This document shows positions 29,633 to 38,337 of a DNA stretch of 64,000 bases, one piece after another. The notes beneath the pieces were generated by a model, which saw nothing but the letters and a program-made list of their open reading frames with translations, was not told where the DNA came from and did not search any database. The translations under genes and the position numbers were made by a program. Within the stretch, counting starts at the first letter, position 1. Every line of letters starts with the position of its first letter. The stretch is from assembly GCA_963702005.1 (NCBI GenBank), contig OY969696.1, positions 352,001 to 416,000 on the forward strand. The letters are read 5' to 3'. This DNA is from Candidatus Aminicenantes bacterium (GTDB taxonomy: Bacteria > Acidobacteriota > Aminicenantia > Aminicenantales > JAFGBC01).

Positions 29633-30175
29633 ATGACTAAACCCGTCATTGCGACCGCGTCCCTAGCCGGCTGTTTCGGCTGCCACATGTCCTTCCTGGA
29701 CATCGACGAGCGGATCCTCAAGCTCATCGAGCTCGTCGAATTCCATAAGTCCCCGATCGATGACATCAAGACCTTCCAGAAGCCCTGCGACATCGGCCTC
29801 ATCGAGGGCGGCTGCTGCAACAGCGAGAACGTCGAAGTCCTCCGCTCTTTCCGGAAGAACTGCAAGATCCTGGTCTCGGTCGGGGAGTGCGCCATCATGG
29901 GCGGCCTGCCCGCCATGCGGAATGCCATTCCGATCAAGGACTGCCTGGAAGAGGCCTACCTTCACTCGCCGACGACCGAGGGCAACACGATCATCCCCAA
30001 CGACAAGGAGCTCCCCCTCATCCTGGACAAAGTCTATCCCTGCCATGAGATCGTCAAGGTCGACGCCTTCCTCCCCGGCTGCCCGCCTTCGGCCGACCTG
30101 ATCTGGGAAGCCTTGAACGCCCTCGTCGAGGGCCGTCCCCTCAACCTAACCTACGACCTCATCAAATTCGACTGA
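29633..30175 (+). CDS. hoxY: [NiFe] hydrogenase small subunit
   Basis: GCFGCHMS, G.CA..GG, PGCPP. Confidence 0.93.
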   Translation: MTKPVIATASLAGCFGCHMSFLDIDERILKLIELVEFHKSPIDDIKTFQKPCDIGLIEGGCCNSENVEVLRSFRKNCKILVSVGECAIMGGLPAMRNAIPIKDCLEEAYLHSPTTEGNTIIPNDKELPLILDKVYPCHEIVKVDAFLPGCPPSADLIWEALNALVEGRPLNLTYDLIKFD

Positions 30176-30187
30176 AGGACCGACGTT

Positions 30188-31636
30188 ATGGCCAAGAAAA
30201 TCACGATCGAGCCCGTGACCCGGGTCGAAGGCCACGGAAAGGTCACCATCCACCTCGACGACCGGGGCCGGCTCAGCCAGTCCCGCTTCCACGTCGTCGA
30301 GTTCCGGGGCTTCGAACGCTTCGTCCAGGGGCGGCCCTACTGGGAAGCCCCCGTCCTCGTCCAGAGGCTGTGCGGGATCTGCCCCGTCAGCCACCATCTG
30401 GCGGCCGCCAAGGCCATGGACATCATCGTCGGTGCCGACCCGGACCGCCTCCCGGCGACGGCGCACAAGATGCGCCGCCTCATGCACTACGGGCAGATGC
30501 TCCAATCCCACGCCCTCCATTTCTTCCATCTCGTCTCTCCCGACCTCCTATTCGGTGTCGACGCCGACCCGGCCATTCGCAACATCGTCGGCGTCGCCCT
30601 CAAGCATAAGGACCTGGCCGTCCGGGGCGTCCTGCTCAGAAAATTCGGCCAAGAGATCATCCTGGCCACGGCCGGCAAGAAGATCCACGGCACGGGCGCC
30701 GTTCCGGGCGGCATCAACAAGAACCTGAGCCCCGAGGAGAGGGATTCCTTCCTCAAGGGCCCGGCCCCCCTCAACGCCGACACCATGATCGACTGGGCCC
30801 AAGGGGCCCTCGATTTCTTCAAGTCCTACCACAAGAAAAACCGGACCTTCATCGACGGCTTCGCCGCTTTCCCCTCGAATCACCTGAGCCTCGTCCGCAA
30901 GGACGGCGCGCTCGATTTCTACCACGGCGTCCTCCGGGCCGTCGACGCGAACGGAGATAAGGTCCTGGACGACGTCGACTACCGCGATTATCTCCGCTAC
31001 ATCGCCGAAGAGGTCCGGACCTGGAGCTATATGAAGTTCCCCTACCTCAAGTCGCTCGGGAAGGACAAGGGCTGGTACCGGGTCGGGCCGCTGGCGCGCC
31101 TCAGCACCTGCGACTTCATCCCCTCGCCCCGGGCCCAGAAGGAATTCGAGGAGTACCGGGCCTACACGCACGGCAAACCCAACTCGATGTCCCTCCACTC
31201 CCACTGGGCGCGCCTCATCGAACTCCTCCACTCCGCCGAGGTCGTCAAGGAGCTTCTCCTCGACAAGGACCTCCAGGGGACGACGCTGACCTACCGGGGC
31301 CCAAAGAGGGGCGAGGGCATCGGGCTGATCGAGGCGCCCCGAGGAACGCTCTTCCATCACTATCGCGTCGACGCCAACGACCAGATCACGATGGCCAACC
31401 TGATCGTCTCGACGACCAACAATAACGAGCCGATGAACCGGGCCGTCCACTGGGTCGCCCAGAACGTCCTCTCCGAAAAGCCCGCAATCACAGAGGGTAT
31501 GCTGAACCAGGTCGAGGTCGCCATCCGCGCCTACGATCCCTGCCTGAGCTGCGCGACCCACGCTGTGGGGTCCATGCCGCTCGAGGTCTCGATCGTCGAT
31601 CCGCGGGGCCGGGTATTGGATTGCCGAAGGCGATAG
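30188..31636 (+). CDS. hoxH: [NiFe] hydrogenase large subunit, group 3d-type
   Basis: RVEGH, L1 RLCGICPVSH, EAPRG.L.H.Y, L2 DPCLSCATH with cleavable C-terminal tail. Confidence 0.95.
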   Translation: MAKKITIEPVTRVEGHGKVTIHLDDRGRLSQSRFHVVEFRGFERFVQGRPYWEAPVLVQRLCGICPVSHHLAAAKAMDIIVGADPDRLPATAHKMRRLMHYGQMLQSHALHFFHLVSPDLLFGVDADPAIRNIVGVALKHKDLAVRGVLLRKFGQEIILATAGKKIHGTGAVPGGINKNLSPEERDSFLKGPAPLNADTMIDWAQGALDFFKSYHKKNRTFIDGFAAFPSNHLSLVRKDGALDFYHGVLRAVDANGDKVLDDVDYRDYLRYIAEEVRTWSYMKFPYLKSLGKDKGWYRVGPLARLSTCDFIPSPRAQKEFEEYRAYTHGKPNSMSLHSHWARLIELLHSAEVVKELLLDKDLQGTTLTYRGPKRGEGIGLIEAPRGTLFHHYRVDANDQITMANLIVSTTNNNEPMNRAVHWVAQNVLSEKPAITEGMLNQVEVAIRAYDPCLSCATHAVGSMPLEVSIVDPRGRVLDCRRR

Positions 31637-32145
31637 CCCCGTCACGAAAAACCGGAGCGGGGGCGAAGGCCCTTGTCTTCGGCATCGGGAACCCCGGGCG
31701 CCGTGACGACGGCCTGGGCCCGCGTTTCATCGACCGTTTGCGCGCCCTGAACCTCCCGGGCGTCGTGACCGACGCCAACTACCAGCTCCAGGTCGAGGAC
31801 GCCTTGACGGTCTCCCGCTTCGAGCGGGTCGTGTTCGTGGACGCGGCGCGGACGATCGCCGTCCCTTTCTTCATCAGCGAGGTCGCGCCCCGCGCGGAAT
31901 TCGCCTTCACGACCCACGCCCTTACGCCCGGAACCGTCCTTGCTCTCAGCCGGGAGCTCTACCGCAAAACACCAAGAACCCATCTCCTGGCCATCCGGGG
32001 GTATGAGTTCGACATCGGAGAGGGCCTGTCCGAGGGAGCCGAGCGGAATCTCGCCTCCGCCCTAGAACATCTGGCGGCCTTCATCACGAAGCGAAGGACC
32101 GCGCCGCCGCGGGCTGCTCGCGCCCGGACCCGGAAACCCCTATAA
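31621..32145 (+). CDS. Hydrogenase maturation protease (HoxW-like)
   Basis: GIGNP.R.DDG.G, VFVDA, TTH. Confidence 0.88.
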   Translation: MPKAIAPSRKTGAGAKALVFGIGNPGRRDDGLGPRFIDRLRALNLPGVVTDANYQLQVEDALTVSRFERVVFVDAARTIAVPFFISEVAPRAEFAFTTHALTPGTVLALSRELYRKTPRTHLLAIRGYEFDIGEGLSEGAERNLASALEHLAAFITKRRTAPPRAARARTRKPL

Positions 32146-32165
32146 TAAGCCTCGAGGACACCGCC

Positions 32166-32894
32166 ATGAGCCGAAGAAAGCCGCCCCTTCCCGCCAAGCC
32201 GCGCGCCGCCGCCAAGGCCCCGGGCGGGCCCCGAAAAAAGGAAATCCTCGTCCGCGAGGAGATCCTGGGCACAAACCGCAAGGTCGCCGCCGAGCTGCGG
32301 AAACGATTCGAGGAGAGCGGCATCCTGGCCGTCAACATGATCAGCTCGCCGGGCGCGGGAAAGACCTCCTTGCTCGAGGCGCTGGCCGACCGACTCCGGG
32401 ACCGGTTCAAGATGGCCGTCATCGAGGGCGATATCGAGACCGAGCGGGACGCCGAACGGGTCCGCCGCAAGGGCGTGGCGGCCTGGCAGATCACAACCGG
32501 AGGCGCCTGCCATCTCGAAGCCAAGATGGTCGGCAAGGTCTTTCCCTCGCTGCCCGCCGGCATCGACCTCCTCTTCATCGAAAACGTCGGCAACCTTGTC
32601 TGCCCCGCCAGCTTCGACCTCGGCGAGTCTCTCCGTCTGGTCATCCTCTCGGCCCCCGAGGGCGACGATAAGCCCAAGAAGTACCCGGAGGCCTTCCTGT
32701 CCGCCGATGTCCTCGTCATCAGCAAGGCCGATCTCTTTCCCCATCTCGCCTTCGATCCCGACCGGGCCGCCCGCGAGGCCCTGGACATCAATCCCGGACT
32801 GCGGGTTTTCGTCACCTCCGCCCTGACGGGCCGGGGTCTGCCCGAGTTCGTCGATTTCCTGGCCGCCCGGCTCGCCGCCCGCCGCCATGCATGA
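32166..32894 (+). CDS. hypB: Hydrogenase nickel incorporation GTPase
   Basis: SSPGAGKT, IEGD, TGGACHL, ENVGNLVCPA.FDLGE, EGDDKP.KYP. Confidence 0.95.
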   Translation: MSRRKPPLPAKPRAAAKAPGGPRKKEILVREEILGTNRKVAAELRKRFEESGILAVNMISSPGAGKTSLLEALADRLRDRFKMAVIEGDIETERDAERVRRKGVAAWQITTGGACHLEAKMVGKVFPSLPAGIDLLFIENVGNLVCPASFDLGESLRLVILSAPEGDDKPKKYPEAFLSADVLVISKADLFPHLAFDPDRAAREALDINPGLRVFVTSALTGRGLPEFVDFLAARLAARRHA

Positions 32895-33231
32895 GCTGTC
32901 CCTGGTCGCGAACCTGTTCGAGATTATCGAACGCCACGCCAAGGACCAGAAGCCCAAGGCGGTGACCCGGGTCCGGATCAAAGTCGGCCGGATGTCCGGG
33001 GTCGTCCCCGAACTTCTCGAGACGGCATTCGACGCTTACAAAAAAGGAACCTTGGCCGAGGACGCCCGGCTCGAGATCGTCCACGTTCCGGTCAAGGCCC
33101 GCTGCCGATCCTGCCGGAGGATCTTCCGGCCCGTCCCGGACGACTTCGCCTGCCCGCACTGCGGCTCCGATCGCTGGAAGCTTCTGGAAGGGACGGACCT
33201 CGTCCTGGAAAAAATCGAGTTGGAGATTTAG
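32887..33231 (+). CDS. hypA: Hydrogenase maturation nickel metallochaperone
   Basis: MHELS, CRSC...CPHC, G.DL. Confidence 0.95.
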   Translation: MHELSLVANLFEIIERHAKDQKPKAVTRVRIKVGRMSGVVPELLETAFDAYKKGTLAEDARLEIVHVPVKARCRSCRRIFRPVPDDFACPHCGSDRWKLLEGTDLVLEKIELEI

Positions 33232-33992
33232 CTGATCTCGCCCGTCAAGTAGGCTCGCGTCCGCGGGTCTTTGGCGTTGGCGAAGATATCCGGGGCGGGG
33301 CCGTGCTCGACGAGCTCTCCCAAATAGAGGAAGACGATGTAGTCGGCGATCCGCCGCGCCTGGCGCAGGATGTGGGTCACGACGACGACCGTGTAATCCT
33401 TCTTAAGCTCGATGAGGCGGCGTTCGACATGCTGGCTGGACTGGGGGTCCAGGGCCGAGGTCGGCTCATCGCCCAGGATGATCTCGGGCTCGACGGCCAG
33501 CCCCCGCGCCAGGCAGAGCCGCTGCTGCTGGCCGACCGAGAGGCGGGAGGCCGGATGGTGGAGCCGGTCCTTGACTTCCTCCCAGAGCCCGGCGGCGCCC
33601 AGATAATTCCGGACGATGAAGTCGAGCGTCTTCCGGTCCCGATTGCCGTGGATGCGGGGTCCGTAGGCAATGTTGTCGTAGATGGACATGGGCAGGACCT
33701 GGGGCTTCTGGGAGAGGAGGCCCATTTTCTTCCGGATGTGGGTGATCTCGACCTTGGGGCCGTAAATGTCCTCTCCGTCGACGAGGACCTCGCCCTCGAC
33801 CCGGACCTCGTCGACGTGGTCGAGAAGGCGGTTCATGGATTTGAGGAGGGTCGTCTTGCCGCAGCCCGAGGGTCCGATGATGGCCGTGATCTTCCGGTCG
33901 GGAATGTCCAGCGAGACGTCCTTAAGGACCTGGAGATCCCCGTAGTAGACGCTGAGATTCCTGAGGCTGAGGTGGCTCTGGGCATCCATCAT
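33228..33992 (-). CDS. PstB-like ABC transporter ATPase
   Basis: GPSGCGKTT, SIYDN.AYGP, LSVGQQQRLC.AR, DEPTSALDP, VTH, T..Y.TG. Confidence 0.88.
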   Translation of the reverse strand: MMDAQSHLSLRNLSVYYGDLQVLKDVSLDIPDRKITAIIGPSGCGKTTLLKSMNRLLDHVDEVRVEGEVLVDGEDIYGPKVEITHIRKKMGLLSQKPQVLPMSIYDNIAYGPRIHGNRDRKTLDFIVRNYLGAAGLWEEVKDRLHHPASRLSVGQQQRLCLARGLAVEPEIILGDEPTSALDPQSSQHVERRLIELKKDYTVVVVTHILRQARRIADYIVFLYLGELVEHGPAPDIFANAKDPRTRAYLTGEIS

Positions 33993-34005
33993 GACTGCGG
34001 ACCTC

Positions 34006-34857
34006 TCATCGAATGACGTGCTTCGTGTATCGGCGGCTCAGGAGCCGGGCCAGGACGCTGATCAAAAGAATCAGGATGGTCAGGATAGCCGCCGAGGCAT
34101 AAGCTCTCTGCCGGACCTCGGGGAAGGGCGTGCCGAGTTGGAAGAAAATGGCCAGGGGGAGGGTCGCGGCCGGCTGGCCGAGCGACGTCGGAATCCTGTC
34201 CGTGAATCCGGCCGTGAAGAGGACCGAGGCGGCGTCCCCGATACCGCGGCCGAGGGCGATCAGGATCCCGGTCAGGATCCCGGGCAGGCACTGACGGAGG
34301 ATGACCTTGAGGGACGTTTCGAGCCGGGTCGCCCCCAAGGAGTAGGAAGCTTCCTTGAGCTCCCGGGGGACCAACCGGATGACCTCGTCGATGGCCCTGC
34401 TCATGATCGGGATCTCGAGCAGGGCGACCGTGATGATCCCGGCCCCGAGGGAGGCTCTCATCCGCAAGAAAACCATCAGGACGAACCCGAACGCGCCGTA
34501 GACGATGGACGGAATCCCCCACAGAACGTCGAACGAAAACCGGGTCAGGGCGGCCAGGCGGGACCGCTTCCGGCAGTAGACGTTGAGGAAGATGACGACG
34601 GGCAAGCTCGCGAGGCCGGCCAGGGCCGTGGCGCCCAAAGCGAGGTAGAGGGAGCCGAGGATCGCGTTGAGGATCCCGCCTTCCTTTCCCAGGTAATAGC
34701 CCCCCTTGGGGGTCTTGGTGATCATGGACAGGTTCAAGGCCGGCAGGCCCTTCCAGATGACGGTCGCGGTGATGAGGAGAAGGCTCCCGATGACGAGGGC
34801 GGTCGAGGCGATCATCAGCGTTTTCCAGATGTCCTCGACCAGCTTCCGCCTGTTCAT
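34006..34857 (-). CDS. PstA-like ABC permease
   Basis: GGI.NAI.GS, GIPSIVYG.FG, EAS..LGAT, GR.IG..A..LFTAG. Confidence 0.87.
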   Translation of the reverse strand: MNRRKLVEDIWKTLMIASTALVIGSLLLITATVIWKGLPALNLSMITKTPKGGYYLGKEGGILNAILGSLYLALGATALAGLASLPVVIFLNVYCRKRSRLAALTRFSFDVLWGIPSIVYGAFGFVLMVFLRMRASLGAGIITVALLEIPIMSRAIDEVIRLVPRELKEASYSLGATRLETSLKVILRQCLPGILTGILIALGRGIGDAASVLFTAGFTDRIPTSLGQPAATLPLAIFFQLGTPFPEVRQRAYASAAILTILILLISVLARLLSRRYTKHVIR

Positions 34858-35735
34858 TCGGCCCTCCTTTCGGCACGGACCAGGAACCAGCGGGCCAGGA
34901 CGTTGAAGACCAGGACGACGAGGAGGAGGACCAGGGCCGCCAGCATGAGGGCGGAATCGTAAAGCGGCACGGACATCATCTCCCCGTAGTTGTTGGCGAT
35001 CAGGGCCGGCAACGGATAGCCGGCGTCGAAGACGGACTTGGGCACGACCGGAACGTTCCCGACGACCATCAGGACGGCCATCGTCTCGCCGAAGGCGCGC
35101 GAGAGGCCCAGGACGCCGGCCGCGATGATCCCCTGCGAGCCCTTGCGCAGGACGACGTGGCGGGTCGTCTCCCAACGGGTCGCGCCCAAGGACAGGGAGG
35201 CCTCGCGGAGGGGGAAGGGAATGGCCGAGAAAACCTCGAGGGCGACATGAATGATCGTCGGGAAGATCATGATGGCCAGGACGATGCCGCCCGACAGGAT
35301 GGAGTACCCGCTCGAGTACTGCCCGAAGGCGGGGGCGATCCGGCGGACCAGGGGGACGATGAGCAGGATGCCCCAGACGCCGAAGATGACCGAGGGGATG
35401 CCGGCCAGGAGGTCGATGAGAGGCTTGGCGAGCTCCCGGAAGCCGCGGGGCGCGTACTCGGACAGATAGATGGCCGTCAGCAAAGAGATCGGGATGGCGA
35501 TGACCAGGGCGACGGCCGTGACCCAGAGCGTCCCCATCAGGAAGGGAAACAGGCCGAACTCCCCGCGCAGAGGGTGCCAGCCCGATGAGAAGAGCAGGCC
35601 GGTGAAGGACTTGAGGGCCAGGATGACCCTCGACTTCTGGAACAGTCCGAAGAGCATCAGGGCGACGAGAACGGTCGGCAGCACGGTCATGATGAACATG
35701 ACCGTGCGACCGGCTTGCTCTTTGAAAATTCTCAA
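34854..35735 (-). CDS. PstC-like ABC permease
   Basis: AIYLSEYA, LLAGIPSV.FG.WG, EAS.SLGAT.W.T, RAFGETMAV.MV.GN. Confidence 0.9.
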   Translation of the reverse strand: MRIFKEQAGRTVMFIMTVLPTVLVALMLFGLFQKSRVILALKSFTGLLFSSGWHPLRGEFGLFPFLMGTLWVTAVALVIAIPISLLTAIYLSEYAPRGFRELAKPLIDLLAGIPSVIFGVWGILLIVPLVRRIAPAFGQYSSGYSILSGGIVLAIMIFPTIIHVALEVFSAIPFPLREASLSLGATRWETTRHVVLRKGSQGIIAAGVLGLSRAFGETMAVLMVVGNVPVVPKSVFDAGYPLPALIANNYGEMMSVPLYDSALMLAALVLLLVVLVFNVLARWFLVRAERRAE

Positions 35736-35754
35736 ACGGCGCTCTTCGCTTTCT

Positions 35755-36720
35755 TTATTTTTCGACTCCGATCCGGGTGAGCCCGTCCTTGAGCTTGTCC
35801 GGGCTGAGGTTGATATAGCCCGTCTCGGGGACGTATTTCTGTCCCTCGGTCAGAACCCAGCGGACGAACTCGACGAGGGCCGGCTTGACCGGTTTTCCCT
35901 TGGTCACGAAATAGAGATCCCGGGCCGGGGGGGACGGAAAGACGTTTTGGGCGATGGCCTTGGTTAGGTCGTCGCGGGTCGCATAAACGGCCTCGGCGGG
36001 CTCGATGACGCCGTTCCCGTTGAGGTCGAGCGGGCAGATGGCGATGCCCTCGATCGGCCTTAATGTCTTCGCGTCATAAGCGTAGTTGACGTTGTTGAAG
36101 CCCACGCTGAGCTGCTCGCGACTGACGGCGTCGGCCAGCCCGGGGTCGCCGTAGACGCCGATCCCGGTCAAGTCCTCCTGGCGCTTGCCCAGATAGGCGG
36201 CCCAAGTATCGGCCGCCCCGCAGGCGTCCGAACGGGTGAAGACGCGGATGGGGGTTTTGTCCGACGTGCCCAACAGATCGCCCCAGGTTTTGACGACGCC
36301 CGTGATCCAGATCCCGACGAACTCGTCGCGCTTGACGCCTCTCTTGAGGAGATCCTTGAGGAAGGGGTTCTGGGCGTTGACGGTGGGGATGACGGCATCC
36401 TTGGTCACGGCGATGGCGAAAGCGCCCTTCTCGACCTCGACCGGCTGGATTTCGCGGGAAACCATGCCGACATCGACCATGCCGGCCACGGCGTCGGCGA
36501 GCCCCTTGCCCGCCCCGCCGGCCTGGACGTCGATCTTGACTTGGGGACAAATCTTCTGGAATTCTTCCACCCACTTGACGGCCATCGGGTAGAGAGCCCA
36601 GGCCCCGGACAGGGAGAGATTCCCCGAAATCTCCGTTTTCTGGGCGGCCCCCAACGAGGGGCCGGCGATCATCGTCGCCGCCCAGAGGAGCAAGAGACCG
36701 AAAGCCATGCGTCTGTTCAT
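35755..36720 (-). CDS. PstS-fold periplasmic substrate-binding protein with atypical binding site
   Basis: Signal peptide; SGAWALYP, GGAGKG, GMVSRE, TRSDACGAA; position in pstSCAB-like operon. Confidence 0.8.
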   Translation of the reverse strand: MNRRMAFGLLLLWAATMIAGPSLGAAQKTEISGNLSLSGAWALYPMAVKWVEEFQKICPQVKIDVQAGGAGKGLADAVAGMVDVGMVSREIQPVEVEKGAFAIAVTKDAVIPTVNAQNPFLKDLLKRGVKRDEFVGIWITGVVKTWGDLLGTSDKTPIRVFTRSDACGAADTWAAYLGKRQEDLTGIGVYGDPGLADAVSREQLSVGFNNVNYAYDAKTLRPIEGIAICPLDLNGNGVIEPAEAVYATRDDLTKAIAQNVFPSPPARDLYFVTKGKPVKPALVEFVRWVLTEGQKYVPETGYINLSPDKLKDGLTRIGVEK

Positions 36721-36740
36721 GTCTATCCTCCGATTATAAC

Positions 36741-37751
36741 TCAGAAACCGGCCTGGAGCTGGACGAGGAAGGCCGAGTTGTCCGTCTTTCCGCCTTCAAG
36801 TTTATAGAGCTCGTAGTTGACCTGAAGCTTGGATTTCGCCGTGAAGAACCAGTTCACGCCCACCGTCCACAGGTTCATCCGGTTATCGGCTATGTTGCGG
36901 TCCTTGTCGTAGGCATCGACCTTGAGAACGGCCTGGAGCTTCTTGGGCATCAGGAACCAGCCGCCCTGGACATACCAGCCCGACCTTTCGAGCTCATCGT
37001 CCTTGGCGAAGATGTACTCGCTCTTGAGGGAGAACGGGTCGTGGAGGACGGCCAGCTCAAGGCCGGTCCTGTTGCGGTCGTAAGCGGGCGACCCGGTCGC
37101 GAGGCTCGTCCGGCCCTTATAAACAGCGGCCCCCAAGGCCAGGAACTCGACGGGACGGACGACGAGCCGGCCGGCGAAGTCTTTCTCGCTGTTGTTGTCC
37201 TTGGTGTCGATCCCCGCGCCGTTGAAGACGCCGAGCGTATATTCGACGATGGACCACTTCCCGAACAGGGCGGCGCCGATATCGCGTCCGTTCGACTTGT
37301 TGTCCCGGCCCGGAGCGAGCTTCTCTTCGGGCTGGGAACGATTGATGGTGTCGAGGTCGGCGCTCGAGGTCAGGTTCTCCATGCTGAAGGGAACCTTGAA
37401 CTGGCCGACCCGCAGCCCGGCCTCGGGGCAGAACTTGAACTCGACCAGGGCGTCGAGGACGACGGGGCTCTTGACGGCGTCGACCTGGATCTTGTAGTTG
37501 ACGTTCTTGAACAGCTCGCCGCTCAGCGAAAACCGGATGCGGCGGGCGCTGAAGCTGTCGACGCCCTTATCCCAGGCCGTGTACCCGAACTGGCTGAATC
37601 CGGTCAGCTTGAAGGGCGCGGCCGCGACCACGGGAGACGGCTCCTTTTTATCCTGGCCGGGAACCGCCCCGGGTAAGGCCAGAAACCCGATGATCAAGCC
37701 CAAGGCGGCGGCCGCCTTGAAGCTTCTCTTGAAGACGATGTTCGTTGTCAT
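36741..37751 (-). CDS. OprO/OprP-like anion-selective porin
   Basis: Signal peptide; F..RR.R..L.G, GQFKVPFS.E, RDIG, G.FNG.G, C-terminal Phe. Confidence 0.8.
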   Translation of the reverse strand: MTTNIVFKRSFKAAAALGLIIGFLALPGAVPGQDKKEPSPVVAAAPFKLTGFSQFGYTAWDKGVDSFSARRIRFSLSGELFKNVNYKIQVDAVKSPVVLDALVEFKFCPEAGLRVGQFKVPFSMENLTSSADLDTINRSQPEEKLAPGRDNKSNGRDIGAALFGKWSIVEYTLGVFNGAGIDTKDNNSEKDFAGRLVVRPVEFLALGAAVYKGRTSLATGSPAYDRNRTGLELAVLHDPFSLKSEYIFAKDDELERSGWYVQGGWFLMPKKLQAVLKVDAYDKDRNIADNRMNLWTVGVNWFFTAKSKLQVNYELYKLEGGKTDNSAFLVQLQAGF

Positions 37752-37841
37752 GGCAGACAAACTCCTTCCTTTCCTGTTGTCCTGTCTCGCTCCGGCCCGC
37801 GCGCTCGGCCGCGAACGATCCGATCTATGGCGAAAGATCTT

Positions 37842-38267
37842 TCAGCGCCGTTTATGCTTGGTCCGGCGAACCAAATCCTCGAAGGTCGTCCTCTCCAGGA
37901 TTTGGGCCACAGAGTCCCGGACCTCCTTCCAAAGCCAACGCAGCCCGCAGCTGTCCTCCATGGGACACGCTTCGTGGGCCATCACCGAAACGCAGTCGAT
38001 CGGGGCCAGCGGTCCGTCCATGACCCGGATGACCTCGGCGACCGAAATGGCCGAGGGCGGTTTGGCCAGGGCGTACCCCCCCTGGTGGCCTTTCCGGCTC
38101 TTGAGGTAGCCCGCCCTCTTGAGGAGGAGCAGGATCTGCTCCAAGAACCGTTCCGGGATGTGCTGCGCCTCGGAGATGTCCTTGATGTGGAGCGGGCCTT
38201 CGCCATAACGGAGGGAGAGCTCGAGCATGGCCCGGCTCGCGTACTCGCCTTTCGTTGACAACCTCAT
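37842..38267 (-). CDS. Rrf2 family transcriptional regulator with three C-terminal Cys
   Basis: LSTKGEYA.RA, FLEQIL..LK..G...S.KG..GGY.L, C-x8-C-x5-C. Confidence 0.92.
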   Translation of the reverse strand: MRLSTKGEYASRAMLELSLRYGEGPLHIKDISEAQHIPERFLEQILLLLKRAGYLKSRKGHQGGYALAKPPSAISVAEVIRVMDGPLAPIDCVSVMAHEACPMEDSCGLRWLWKEVRDSVAQILERTTFEDLVRRTKHKRR

Positions 38268-38280
38268 GGCTTCGTTGCTC

Positions 38281-38337
38281 TTAGTCGACTAACTCAATAG
38301 ACTAACTCATATAACAGAAATCCGGCGGGCTTGTCAA
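38281..38337 (-). promoter_or_regulatory. Rrf2 operon promoter and candidate IscR-type operator
   Basis: TTGACA (38337-32); 25-bp TTAGTCTATTGAGTTAGTCGACTAA (38305-38281); GACTAACTCA direct repeat at 38287 and 38300. Confidence 0.7.

Follow-up and report, generated by a model that had tools for sequence, protein, structure and literature searches.

Positions 33228-38267 of a 64,000-nucleotide stretch of the genome of a Candidatus Aminicenantes bacterium (contig OY969696.1, positions 352,001 to 416,000; this whole stretch is called the window below) hold a six-gene operon that resembles the phosphate importer PstSCAB but begins with genes for an Rrf2-family regulator and an outer-membrane porin. 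From its gene content, the residues changed in its substrate-binding protein (SBP) and permeases, its synteny in related genomes and its co-occurrence with other genes, we infer with reasonable, though not strong, confidence that the operon encodes a Pst-derived importer of sulfate, perhaps of thiosulfate too, and that it would be repressed by its own dedicated Rrf2 protein. The source genome is a single contig of 4.31 Mb, 94% complete.

An SBP of PstS descent with an altered ligand pocket

The SBP gene (35755..36720, minus strand) encodes a protein of 321 aa with a signal peptide and a match to PBP_like_2 (PF12849; 104.8 bits). On the two PstS models this protein scored 108.8 against a cut-off of 206.6 (TIGR02136) and 69.9 against 205 (TIGR00975), below both; the canonical PstS proteins encoded elsewhere in this genome, two in number, scored 220.7 and 204.4 and retain the ligand motifs GSTS or GSDT, GGGS and SGT. 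The overall fold is that of the phosphate-binding proteins. The AlphaFold2 model (predicted local distance difference test score, 93.9) has the two-lobed PstS fold by Foldseek, in which the first 23 ranks are all PstS; the relatives of solved structure are all phosphate-binding proteins, with ∼20-23% identity, and a search of the ESM Atlas returned only clusters named 'phosphate-binding protein'.

Ligand positions were mapped by a HMMER alignment of the SBP to the solved Clostridium perfringens protein PBP-1, for which the available text of PMC5381212 lists Ser11, Thr12, Ser13, Ser41, Ser59, Arg125, Ser129, Gly130 and Thr131 as phosphate ligands and Ser13 as the presumed acceptor of the phosphate proton. 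Five of the six hydroxyl ligands are replaced in the SBP (Ser11 by Ala40, Thr12 by Trp41, Ser41 by Ala70, Ser129 by Cys167 and Thr131 by Ala169) and only Ser59 is kept, as Ser88; the proton acceptor Ser13 has become Ala42. Arg125 and Gly130 are retained as Arg163 and Gly168, and a lysine, Lys72, is newly present in the GAGKG loop, so that the pocket as mapped comprises A40 W41 A42, A70 K72, S88 R89 and R163 D165 C167 G168 A169. The sequence-only reading from which this work started had claimed, by eye and against E. coli PstS, that most hydroxyl donors to phosphate were lost from three ligand loops. The loops SGAWAL, GAGKG and RSDACGA are indeed present, and its four substitutions match changes mapped here through PBP-1. 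Judged by these alignments, the SBP is a PstS by descent, not by pocket, and lies outside PstS in the tests that relate to the ligand.

A widespread family with a common pocket motif

A word-indexed search scored at least 7,575 homologues of the SBP (among 8,000 candidates), and an exhaustive search of 50%-identity representatives returned 204 clusters at E ≤ 1e-30. The closest homologues are 60-85% identical, and those that have a name are labeled 'phosphate transport system substrate-binding protein' or 'substrate-binding domain-containing protein'. The Alistipes protein WP_129650028.1 is an example from a cultured carrier. When one genome per species was scanned with a motif taken from the alignment of the closer SBPs (a more diverse alignment had no conserved stretch), at least 597 stretches matched and at least 560 were confirmed. 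The best 80 of the at least 560 confirmed matches (L013-L092) are the related loci used throughout, and neighbor counts use only those with enough flank. By record title they belong to Aminicenantes, Eisenbacteria, Omnitrophota, Planctomycetota, Kiritimatiellia, Spirochaetota, Ignavibacteriales, many Bacteroidales and an anaerobic methanotrophic (ANME-1) archaeon.

We aligned 96 family members: the window SBP, those of the 80 related loci and those of 16 loci from the window's own phylum, minus the split gene of L032. The pocket reads S38-G-A-[W/F]-A, with Trp in 56 and Phe in 40 members, G68-G-A-G-K-G, S88-R, and R163-S-D-[A/S]-C-G-A, with the Cys in 90 of 96; it is otherwise invariant. Two of these motifs served as search patterns, so that independent confirmation comes from the RSDACGA block only. 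From this alignment we conclude that the pocket change is more than chance, as the motifs are common to the 96 members. A quick maximum-likelihood tree set the family apart from five canonical PstS proteins, with a branch of length 5 between the two (support of 100 in the Shimodaira-Hasegawa-like approximate likelihood ratio test); a sixth row that a motif filter had labeled canonical is the frameshifted family member L032.

The alignment also bears on the earlier suggestion that the tryptophan of SGAWAL acts as an indole donor to the anion, as in the sulfate-binding protein Sbp. This role for Trp41 was ruled out: because 40 of the 96 members, among them most of those linked to cys genes, carry Phe at position 41, this position is not an essential hydrogen-bond donor.

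Some members stand apart. In genomes of the window's phylum, five loci (L098, L099, L100, L102 and L111) hold lone family SBPs with the full pocket motif and no adjacent pstCAB; four open reading frames (ORFs) beside the SBP at L100 had no Pfam match. Broken frames were seen in pstC and cysD at L059 (G032:C6:628745-632996), in pstB at L023:12681-13424 and in the SBP and PstA genes at L032:10001-10871. These in-frame stops and split matches reflect either decay of the loci or errors in the assembly of metagenome-assembled genomes (MAGs).

Permease residues around the membrane anion site

The PstC-type permease (34854..35735, minus strand; 293 aa) scored 266.4 on TIGR02138 (cut-off 196.45) and the PstA-type permease (34006..34857, minus strand; 283 aa, its ATG overlapping the pstC stop codon) scored 196.3 on TIGR00974, narrowly above its cut-off (193.45). 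The PstB-type ATPase (33228..33992, minus strand; 254 aa) fell just below its cut-off (TIGR00972; 338.4 against 343.2). PstC proteins linked to the SBP family are 51-81% identical to that of the window, the exception among the 80 loci being the apparently decaying copy at L059 (42%), and canonical PstC proteins are 32-42% identical to it.

For the permeases, 76 pairs linked to the family were set against 16 canonical ones, leaving out six of 82 family systems without a paired PstA ORF and three of 19 canonical loci without two paired permease ORFs; L120 turned out to be a family locus. The positions that differ between the two sets include the following four, with E. coli numbers taken from alignment to the E. 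coli chains. In PstA, all 76 family proteins have Asp at Asp210 (E. coli Glu224), where 15 of 16 canonical ones have Glu, and Ala211 (E. coli Thr225) is Ala in 74 of 76 versus Thr in 15 of 16. In PstC, Ser212 (E. coli Gly236) is Ser in 71 of 76 versus Gly in all 16, and Asn249 (E. coli Glu274) is Asn in 91% of the family versus Glu in all 16. PstC Arg213 and Glu217 (E. coli Arg237 and Glu241) and PstA Arg206 (E. coli Arg220), to which the four changed positions are adjacent, are kept. According to the available text of PMC12976172, PstC Arg237 and PstA Arg220 form the membrane phosphate site together with backbones of transmembrane helix 5, Glu224 and Glu241 salt-bridge the two arginines, and PstC Ala272 lies in the periplasmic gate. 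With the arginines kept and their neighbors changed, the channel still has the look of one made for a small tetrahedral anion, but in a re-tuned surround. By sequence comparison, this surround looks to have been re-tuned in step with the binding protein.

Sulfate-assimilation genes, not PhoU, accompany some related loci

The neighborhoods of homologs, where the sequence-only reading had set Rrf2 and sulfur genes against phoU and phoB, lend it support. They were surveyed by tblastn in the 80 related loci, with the proteins of the window and the PhoU of its genome as queries. No PhoU was detected at any of the 80 loci with the PhoU query. The transporter genes keep their order, with PstC following the SBP in 72 of 76 loci, PstA in 65 of 70 and PstB in 58 of 63. 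Rrf2 lies within 3 kb upstream in 35 of 66 loci (28 co-oriented, 7 divergent), and an OprO/P-like porin gene lies upstream of the SBP gene in 25 of 71; among the porin-less loci, six have an Alginate_exp-like barrel and five a DUF2490 barrel. Other regulators at the loci are LuxR-type response regulators (6), AraC-type regulators (4) and ribbon-helix-helix proteins.

When the 1,196 ORFs called from the loci were clustered, the only further recurrent families were those of sulfate assimilation, CysD, CysN and CysH. Their identities are clear on NCBIfam models: 450.1 bits for CysD (cut-off 195), 545.6 for CysN (336.1) and 283.1 for CysH, the reductase of adenosine 5′-phosphosulfate (APS) or 3′-phosphoadenosine 5′-phosphosulfate (PAPS) (154). 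By tblastn, CysD was present in 17 of 80 loci, CysN in 16 and CysH in 12, mostly directly 3′ of pstB. Three loci (L034, L083 and L092) have the order porin-SBP-PstCAB-CysD-CysN-CysH, with the porin gene inverted in L092, and at L044 the order SBP-PstCAB-CysH-CysD-CysN is followed by a NIR_SIR sulfite reductase gene. CysD and CysN also stand at the ANME-1 locus (L055) and at that of a 'delta proteobacterium' MAG (L087). Members linked to cys genes, which come from these two genomes and from Bacteroidales and Ignavibacteriales, occupy several separate positions in the tree, and three loci (L059, L074 and L076) have both Rrf2 and cys genes. No molybdenum, tungsten or selenium genes were linked to the loci among the ORF clusters found.

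At L087, in a MAG unrelated to the window's genome, a gene of the PF01663 phosphodiesterase family lies between pstB and cysD (L087:13601-14566), and a member of the same family lies between the sulfate-activation genes of the window's genome (below). The protein, annotated 'type I phosphodiesterase / nucleotide pyrophosphatase', may be a partner of sulfate activation.

Phosphate and sulfate genes in carrier genomes

The genome of the window has, as the sequence-only reading proposed to check, a separate canonical pst-phoU locus, pstS-pstC-pstA-pstB-phoU, at ∼2.78 Mb of its contig (C1). A second pst locus at ∼2.50 Mb includes two tandem pstB genes (C1:2506475-2507970; 326.4 and 377.8 bits). 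Genes for the ATP sulfurylase Sat (407.5 bits) and APS kinase flank the PF01663 gene (∼2.2347-2.2361 Mb; L094:10714-12096), near sugar-nucleotide genes, from which it follows that the organism uses sulfate, for PAPS at the least. We found no CysD or CysH by tblastn, no NIR_SIR sulfite reductase, no Sbp/CysP and no SulP in this genome; a sulfate importer of the classical, high-affinity kind is not seen. Because CysH and NIR_SIR are missing, sulfate could only go to PAPS here, not to cysteine or iron-sulfur (Fe-S) synthesis.

Among the 50 genomes that hold the related loci, PhoU scored over its cut-off in 34, always away from the locus; CysD was found in 30, Sat in 17 (E ≤ 1e-30) and either of the two in 46. 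Another PstC is encoded elsewhere in 39 of 44 carrier genomes, and the five whose only PstC is that of the family are G011, G014, G024, G042 and G050, three of which (G014, G042 and G050) have the cys-linked form. In a sample of 151 Bacteroidales genomes, 53 have the family; CysD was present in 46 of these 53 versus 57 of the 98 without it (odds ratio 4.7; Fisher p-value of 2.5e-4, uncorrected for relatedness).

The Rrf2 protein and its putative operator

The first gene of the operon (37842..38267, minus strand) encodes a 141-aa Rrf2-family protein (PF02082; 134.6 bits) with Cys92, Cys101 and Cys107. It scored below the equivalog cut-offs of both CymR, a regulator of cysteine metabolism (112.9 against 195; the best specific model), and IscR, a regulator of Fe-S assembly (97.6 against 207.55). 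Upstream on the same strand lies a putative promoter, with a −35 hexamer TTGACA (38332..38337) that recurs at the same relative place in related loci and, after a spacer of 17-18 nt, a −10 region, TTATAT or TATATG (38308..38314), that is consensus-like only. An operator-like element, GAGTTAGTC-N4-GAGTTAGTCGACTAA (N4 = TATT; 38278..38308, minus strand), overlaps the transcription start region and is a putative Rrf2 site. It includes a perfect 12-bp palindrome (38281-38292), whose exact match occurs once in the 4.31 Mb genome, where 0.085 is expected. Of 21 sites (that of the window and those of 20 related loci), 19 have a similar element that begins 42-48 nt away, counted from where the Rrf2 start codon ends. 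In a genome scan with a position weight matrix (PWM) built from these sites, the window's own included, the window's site scored 47.1 bits and the best site elsewhere 18.3 bits; hits at 19.1 and 18.2 bits are the window's site itself, read in overlapping registers on the opposite strand. The only other site of the genome with a weak resemblance (18.3 bits) lies outside the window, at G000:C1:3742006. A wider Rrf2 regulon was considered and dropped, the PWM scan having given no second credible site. On the basis of these sequence elements, we conclude that Rrf2 is probably a dedicated, autoregulated local repressor of its own operon.

The three cysteines are kept in 41 of 48 Rrf2 proteins (that of the window and 47 from related loci), and a cluster of the Fe-S type bound by them is the obvious candidate for the signal. 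The other seven proteins, which lack all three and have Ser-Thr-Lys-like residues in their place (L048, L049, L090, L042, L084, L065 and L071), come from Planctomycetota, Kiritimatiellia, Omnitrophota and Spirochaetota, so that cluster-type and cluster-less Rrf2 proteins accompany the same transporter. In one genus (g5; L105:2541-7409), genes for FeoB, an Mrp/NUBPL-like P-loop protein and a class-V aminotransferase of the cysteine desulfurase type precede Rrf2. In this genus the transporter is present and no ATP sulfurylase or sulfite reductase was found; genes for a GalT-like HIT protein (DUF4921/DUF4931) and CysS converge on pstB (L105:12058-14843). The proposed tie of the operon to Fe-S status is consistent with the cysteines and with the desulfurase gene of this one genus, and the signal itself may be of this kind.

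Layout of the operon and its surroundings

All six frames are intact, co-oriented on the minus strand from 38267 down to 33228 in the order Rrf2, OprO/P-like porin, SBP, PstC, PstA and PstB, and Pfam and NCBIfam agree on the identity of each, as described from sequence alone at the outset. Because the gaps from Rrf2 to pstB are 81, 20, 19, −4 (an ATGA overlap) and 13 nt, the layout is that of one transcription unit. No phoU, phoB or phoR lies in the operon, also as first described, and the sole phoU of the genome is ∼2.4 Mb away. The second gene (36741..37760, minus strand) encodes a predicted outer-membrane anion porin of the OprO/P-like type, of 339 aa, that matches PF07396 (Porin_O_P) in two stretches with 103.6 bits (gathering score 20.9), the best stretch covering model positions 26-165 of 370.

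A gene for a dipeptidyl peptidase IV-type peptidase lies upstream of the operon in divergent orientation. At the other end, hypA (32887-33231; PF01155) converges on pstB with a 4-bp overlap, at the end of a cluster (29633-33231) that encodes the small and large subunits of a [NiFe]-hydrogenase, a likely maturation protease (no Pfam match), HypB and HypA. The tail-to-tail arrangement with a hydrogenase operon that had been pointed out is therefore real, with hypB and the hydrogenase subunit genes upstream of hypA. A functional link to the hydrogenase was tried and rejected: ORF clusters resembling HypA and HypB (named by eye) occur in only three loci each, all close relatives. The hydrogenase neighborhood looks like local synteny, an inherited gene order, and not a functional link.

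Discussion

In the sequence-only reading, a Pst-derived importer had come to serve sulfate, thiosulfate or a different non-phosphate oxyanion, with a tie to Fe-S or sulfur status. The core of that reading, a non-phosphate oxyanion importer with a sulfur link, has gained support from the cysDNH genes beside 17 of 80 related loci, the absence of PhoU from all of them, the canonical pst-phoU locus elsewhere in the genome and the permease changes; the indole donor and the hydrogenase link have fallen away, and the tie to Fe-S status is a possibility only. The pathway we favor would run as follows. A fully ionized sulfur oxyanion, most likely sulfate, would cross the outer membrane through the OprO/P-like porin and be captured by the SBP, from whose pocket five of the six hydroxyl donors are gone, as is the presumed acceptor for the proton of HPO4(2-). 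The anion would be held by backbone NH groups, Ser88 and Arg163 in a pocket that has gained the invariant Lys72, an aromatic residue and Cys167, and would then be handed to a PstC/PstA channel that keeps its two anion-binding arginines in a re-tuned surround, with import powered by PstB. Transcription would start from the sigma-70-like promoter, where Rrf2, the first product of the operon, would bind the conserved operator-like repeat overlapping the start and repress. Imported sulfate would feed Sat and APS kinase, and hence PAPS, in this organism and CysDN, CysH and sulfite reductase in other carriers.

Several observations weigh against sulfate import as proposed here. The pocket of Sbp is uncharged, and the window SBP keeps Arg163 and gains Lys72; its position 41, moreover, varies between Trp and Phe (56 and 40 of 96 members). 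PstC and PstA both pass the curated cut-offs for phosphate permeases, and 63 of the 80 related loci have no cys gene within the flanks examined. Sulfate could also enter through either of two secondary carriers that the window's genome encodes, one from the PiT family and the other from the DASS family, and the control of PAPS-only sulfate use by an Fe-S-type Rrf2 is unexplained. Co-occurrence is also uneven. SulP is equally frequent in Bacteroidales with the family (22 of 53) and without it (43 of 98), so there is no sign that the family replaces SulP. In a sample of 201 genomes of the window's phylum, the window's included, 17 have the family; Sat is not enriched in them (12 of 17 versus 108 of 184; p-value of 0.44), and the absence of Sbp/CysP (0 of 17 versus 33 of 184; p-value of 0.08) is not significant, each tally including one unpublished genome without the family (G099 for Sat, G074 for Sbp/CysP) that affects no conclusion. 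Replacement of known carriers by the family, SulP or Sbp/CysP, is accordingly unusable as evidence. Five of these 17 carriers (91-99% complete), namely G115, G194 and, from a single genus, G077, G093 and G195, lack Sat, CysD and NIR_SIR sulfite reductase.

The last observation would fit a different ligand. The operon could import a non-phosphate oxyanion other than sulfate, whether just thiosulfate, just sulfite, or else selenate, molybdate or tungstate, and the linkage to cys genes would then mark a related use rather than that of sulfate. An activation-free form such as thiosulfate would suit the five carriers without ATP sulfurylase and sulfite reductase, as well as the window's genome, which has none of the known routes of sulfate reduction; the near-invariant pocket cysteine (90 of 96) and the cysteine desulfurase, Mrp-like protein and FeoB encoded before Rrf2 in one genus point the same way. 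Against it, the L044 operon, in which SBP and PstCAB are followed by CysH, CysD, CysN and sulfite reductase, needs sulfate as input, and no molybdenum, tungsten or selenium genes are tied to the loci in the clusters found. The pocket residues are, furthermore, identical in cys-linked and other members, and one ligand class is therefore expected. We regard this alternative, of which thiosulfate alone is the foremost form, as unlikely, though not to be neglected.

We think it improbable that the operon is still a phosphate importer, a divergent and perhaps less selective Pst under a non-Pho regulator. All solved relatives bind phosphate, Arg163, Asp165 and Ser88 are kept, as are both channel arginines, the two permeases score as PstC and PstA, and public annotation names the binding protein PstS; five of 44 carriers, furthermore, have no other PstC. 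What speaks against phosphate is the loss of five of six hydroxyl ligands and of the proton acceptor, the absence of PhoU at the 80 loci, the other Pst system in 39 of 44 carriers (and the pst-phoU locus of the window's genome) and the placement of family loci within cysDNH operons, including those of three of the five sole-PstC genomes (G014, G042 and G050). Of these five, G014, G024 and G050 hold long PhoU-domain frames, presumed Na/Pi-type carriers. It is very improbable that the SBP is mainly a sensor or the operon decaying or non-functional. Orphan family SBPs without PstCAB do occur in 5 of the 16 phylum-sample loci, and frames are broken in a few related loci (L023, L032 and L059/G032); however, the six frames of the window are intact and tightly packed, and from phylum to phylum the family stays at 50-85% identity, its pocket invariant and its permeases co-varying.

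The operon has features of several known systems and differs from each. It shares with PstSCAB of the E. coli type (TC 3.A.1.7), a high-affinity phosphate importer, the PBP_like_2 SBP, two permeases and an ATPase, passing PstC and PstA models, and the residues Arg237, Glu241 and Arg220. It differs from PstSCAB in an SBP at half of the cut-off score with five of six hydroxyl ligands lost, in the changes PstA Glu224-Thr225 to Asp-Ala, PstC Gly236 to Ser and Glu274 to Asn, in the absence of PhoU from 80 loci, in its Rrf2 regulator and in the linkage of relatives to cysDNH. Its proposed job, SBP-dependent sulfate uptake that feeds ATP sulfurylase and is sometimes encoded with cys genes, is that of the Sbp/CysP-CysTWA (SulT) systems, but there is no homology at the family level. 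Tested on the SulT models TIGR00971, TIGR00969, TIGR02139, TIGR02140 and TIGR00968, the SBP had no match to TIGR00971, the permeases reached 28-53 bits against CysT/CysW cut-offs of 240-415, and the ATPase scored 122.8 against 342.75; the Arg and Lys of the pocket also set it apart from Sbp with its uncharged donors. On these comparisons, the operon may work like SulT and is not a member of it; it descends from Pst.

There is a precedent for phosphate transporters whose lineage has switched to sulfate, CysP of Bacillus subtilis, a PiT-family sulfate permease, although that protein is a secondary carrier of unrelated fold and the present system a primary ATP-binding cassette (ABC) importer with its own SBP and porin. 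The regulator resembles CymR and IscR in belonging to Rrf2, in its best-scoring specific models, in a three-cysteine motif as in cluster-binding members and in its sulfur-related gene context; unlike them it falls below both cut-offs, has the spacing C-X8-C-X5-C, is without all three cysteines in 7 of the 48 aligned proteins and apparently controls only its own operon. The porin is like Pseudomonas OprP and OprO in its PF07396 match and in being encoded with an anion ABC importer, but the model match is partial (26-165 of 370) and Alginate_exp-like or DUF2490 barrels substitute for it in other loci. Full-text literature searches found no description of a Pst-derived sulfate importer or of a link between Rrf2 and pst, and supplementary tables might list candidates. 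The available text of PMC5840216 recognizes five sulfate transporter families, B. subtilis CysP among them, and contains 'Pst' 0 times; that of PMC6286981, on sulfate assimilation in ANME, contains 'phosphate' 0 times and 'ABC' 0 times.

More tentatively, and with slightly less than even confidence, we suggest that the family could be a sixth, hitherto unrecognized prokaryotic family of sulfate uptake, arisen by an anion switch of a whole Pst system (SBP, both permeases and often a porin) and present in many phyla and in at least one ANME-1 archaeon. In many lineages a dedicated Rrf2 repressor would, through its three-cysteine site, couple import to Fe-S or redox status. If sulfate is indeed the substrate, thousands of genes annotated as 'phosphate ABC transporter' would be sulfur importers (one search scored at least 7,575 homologues, the motif matched at least 560 species genomes, and 53 of 151 sampled Bacteroidales have the family), and metagenomic readings of phosphorus versus sulfur acquisition would change. 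The system, which is annotated everywhere as a phosphate transporter, would be common in gut and rumen Bacteroidales. It would explain how anaerobes without Sbp/CysP take up the sulfate that they assimilate or use in PAPS-dependent sulfation, a step so far missing. It would also provide a natural experiment in which a few substitutions in an SBP and its channel turn phosphate into sulfate selectivity. To the Rrf2 family, whose signals are only partly known, it would add a regulator that is dedicated to one operon and has a defined operator.

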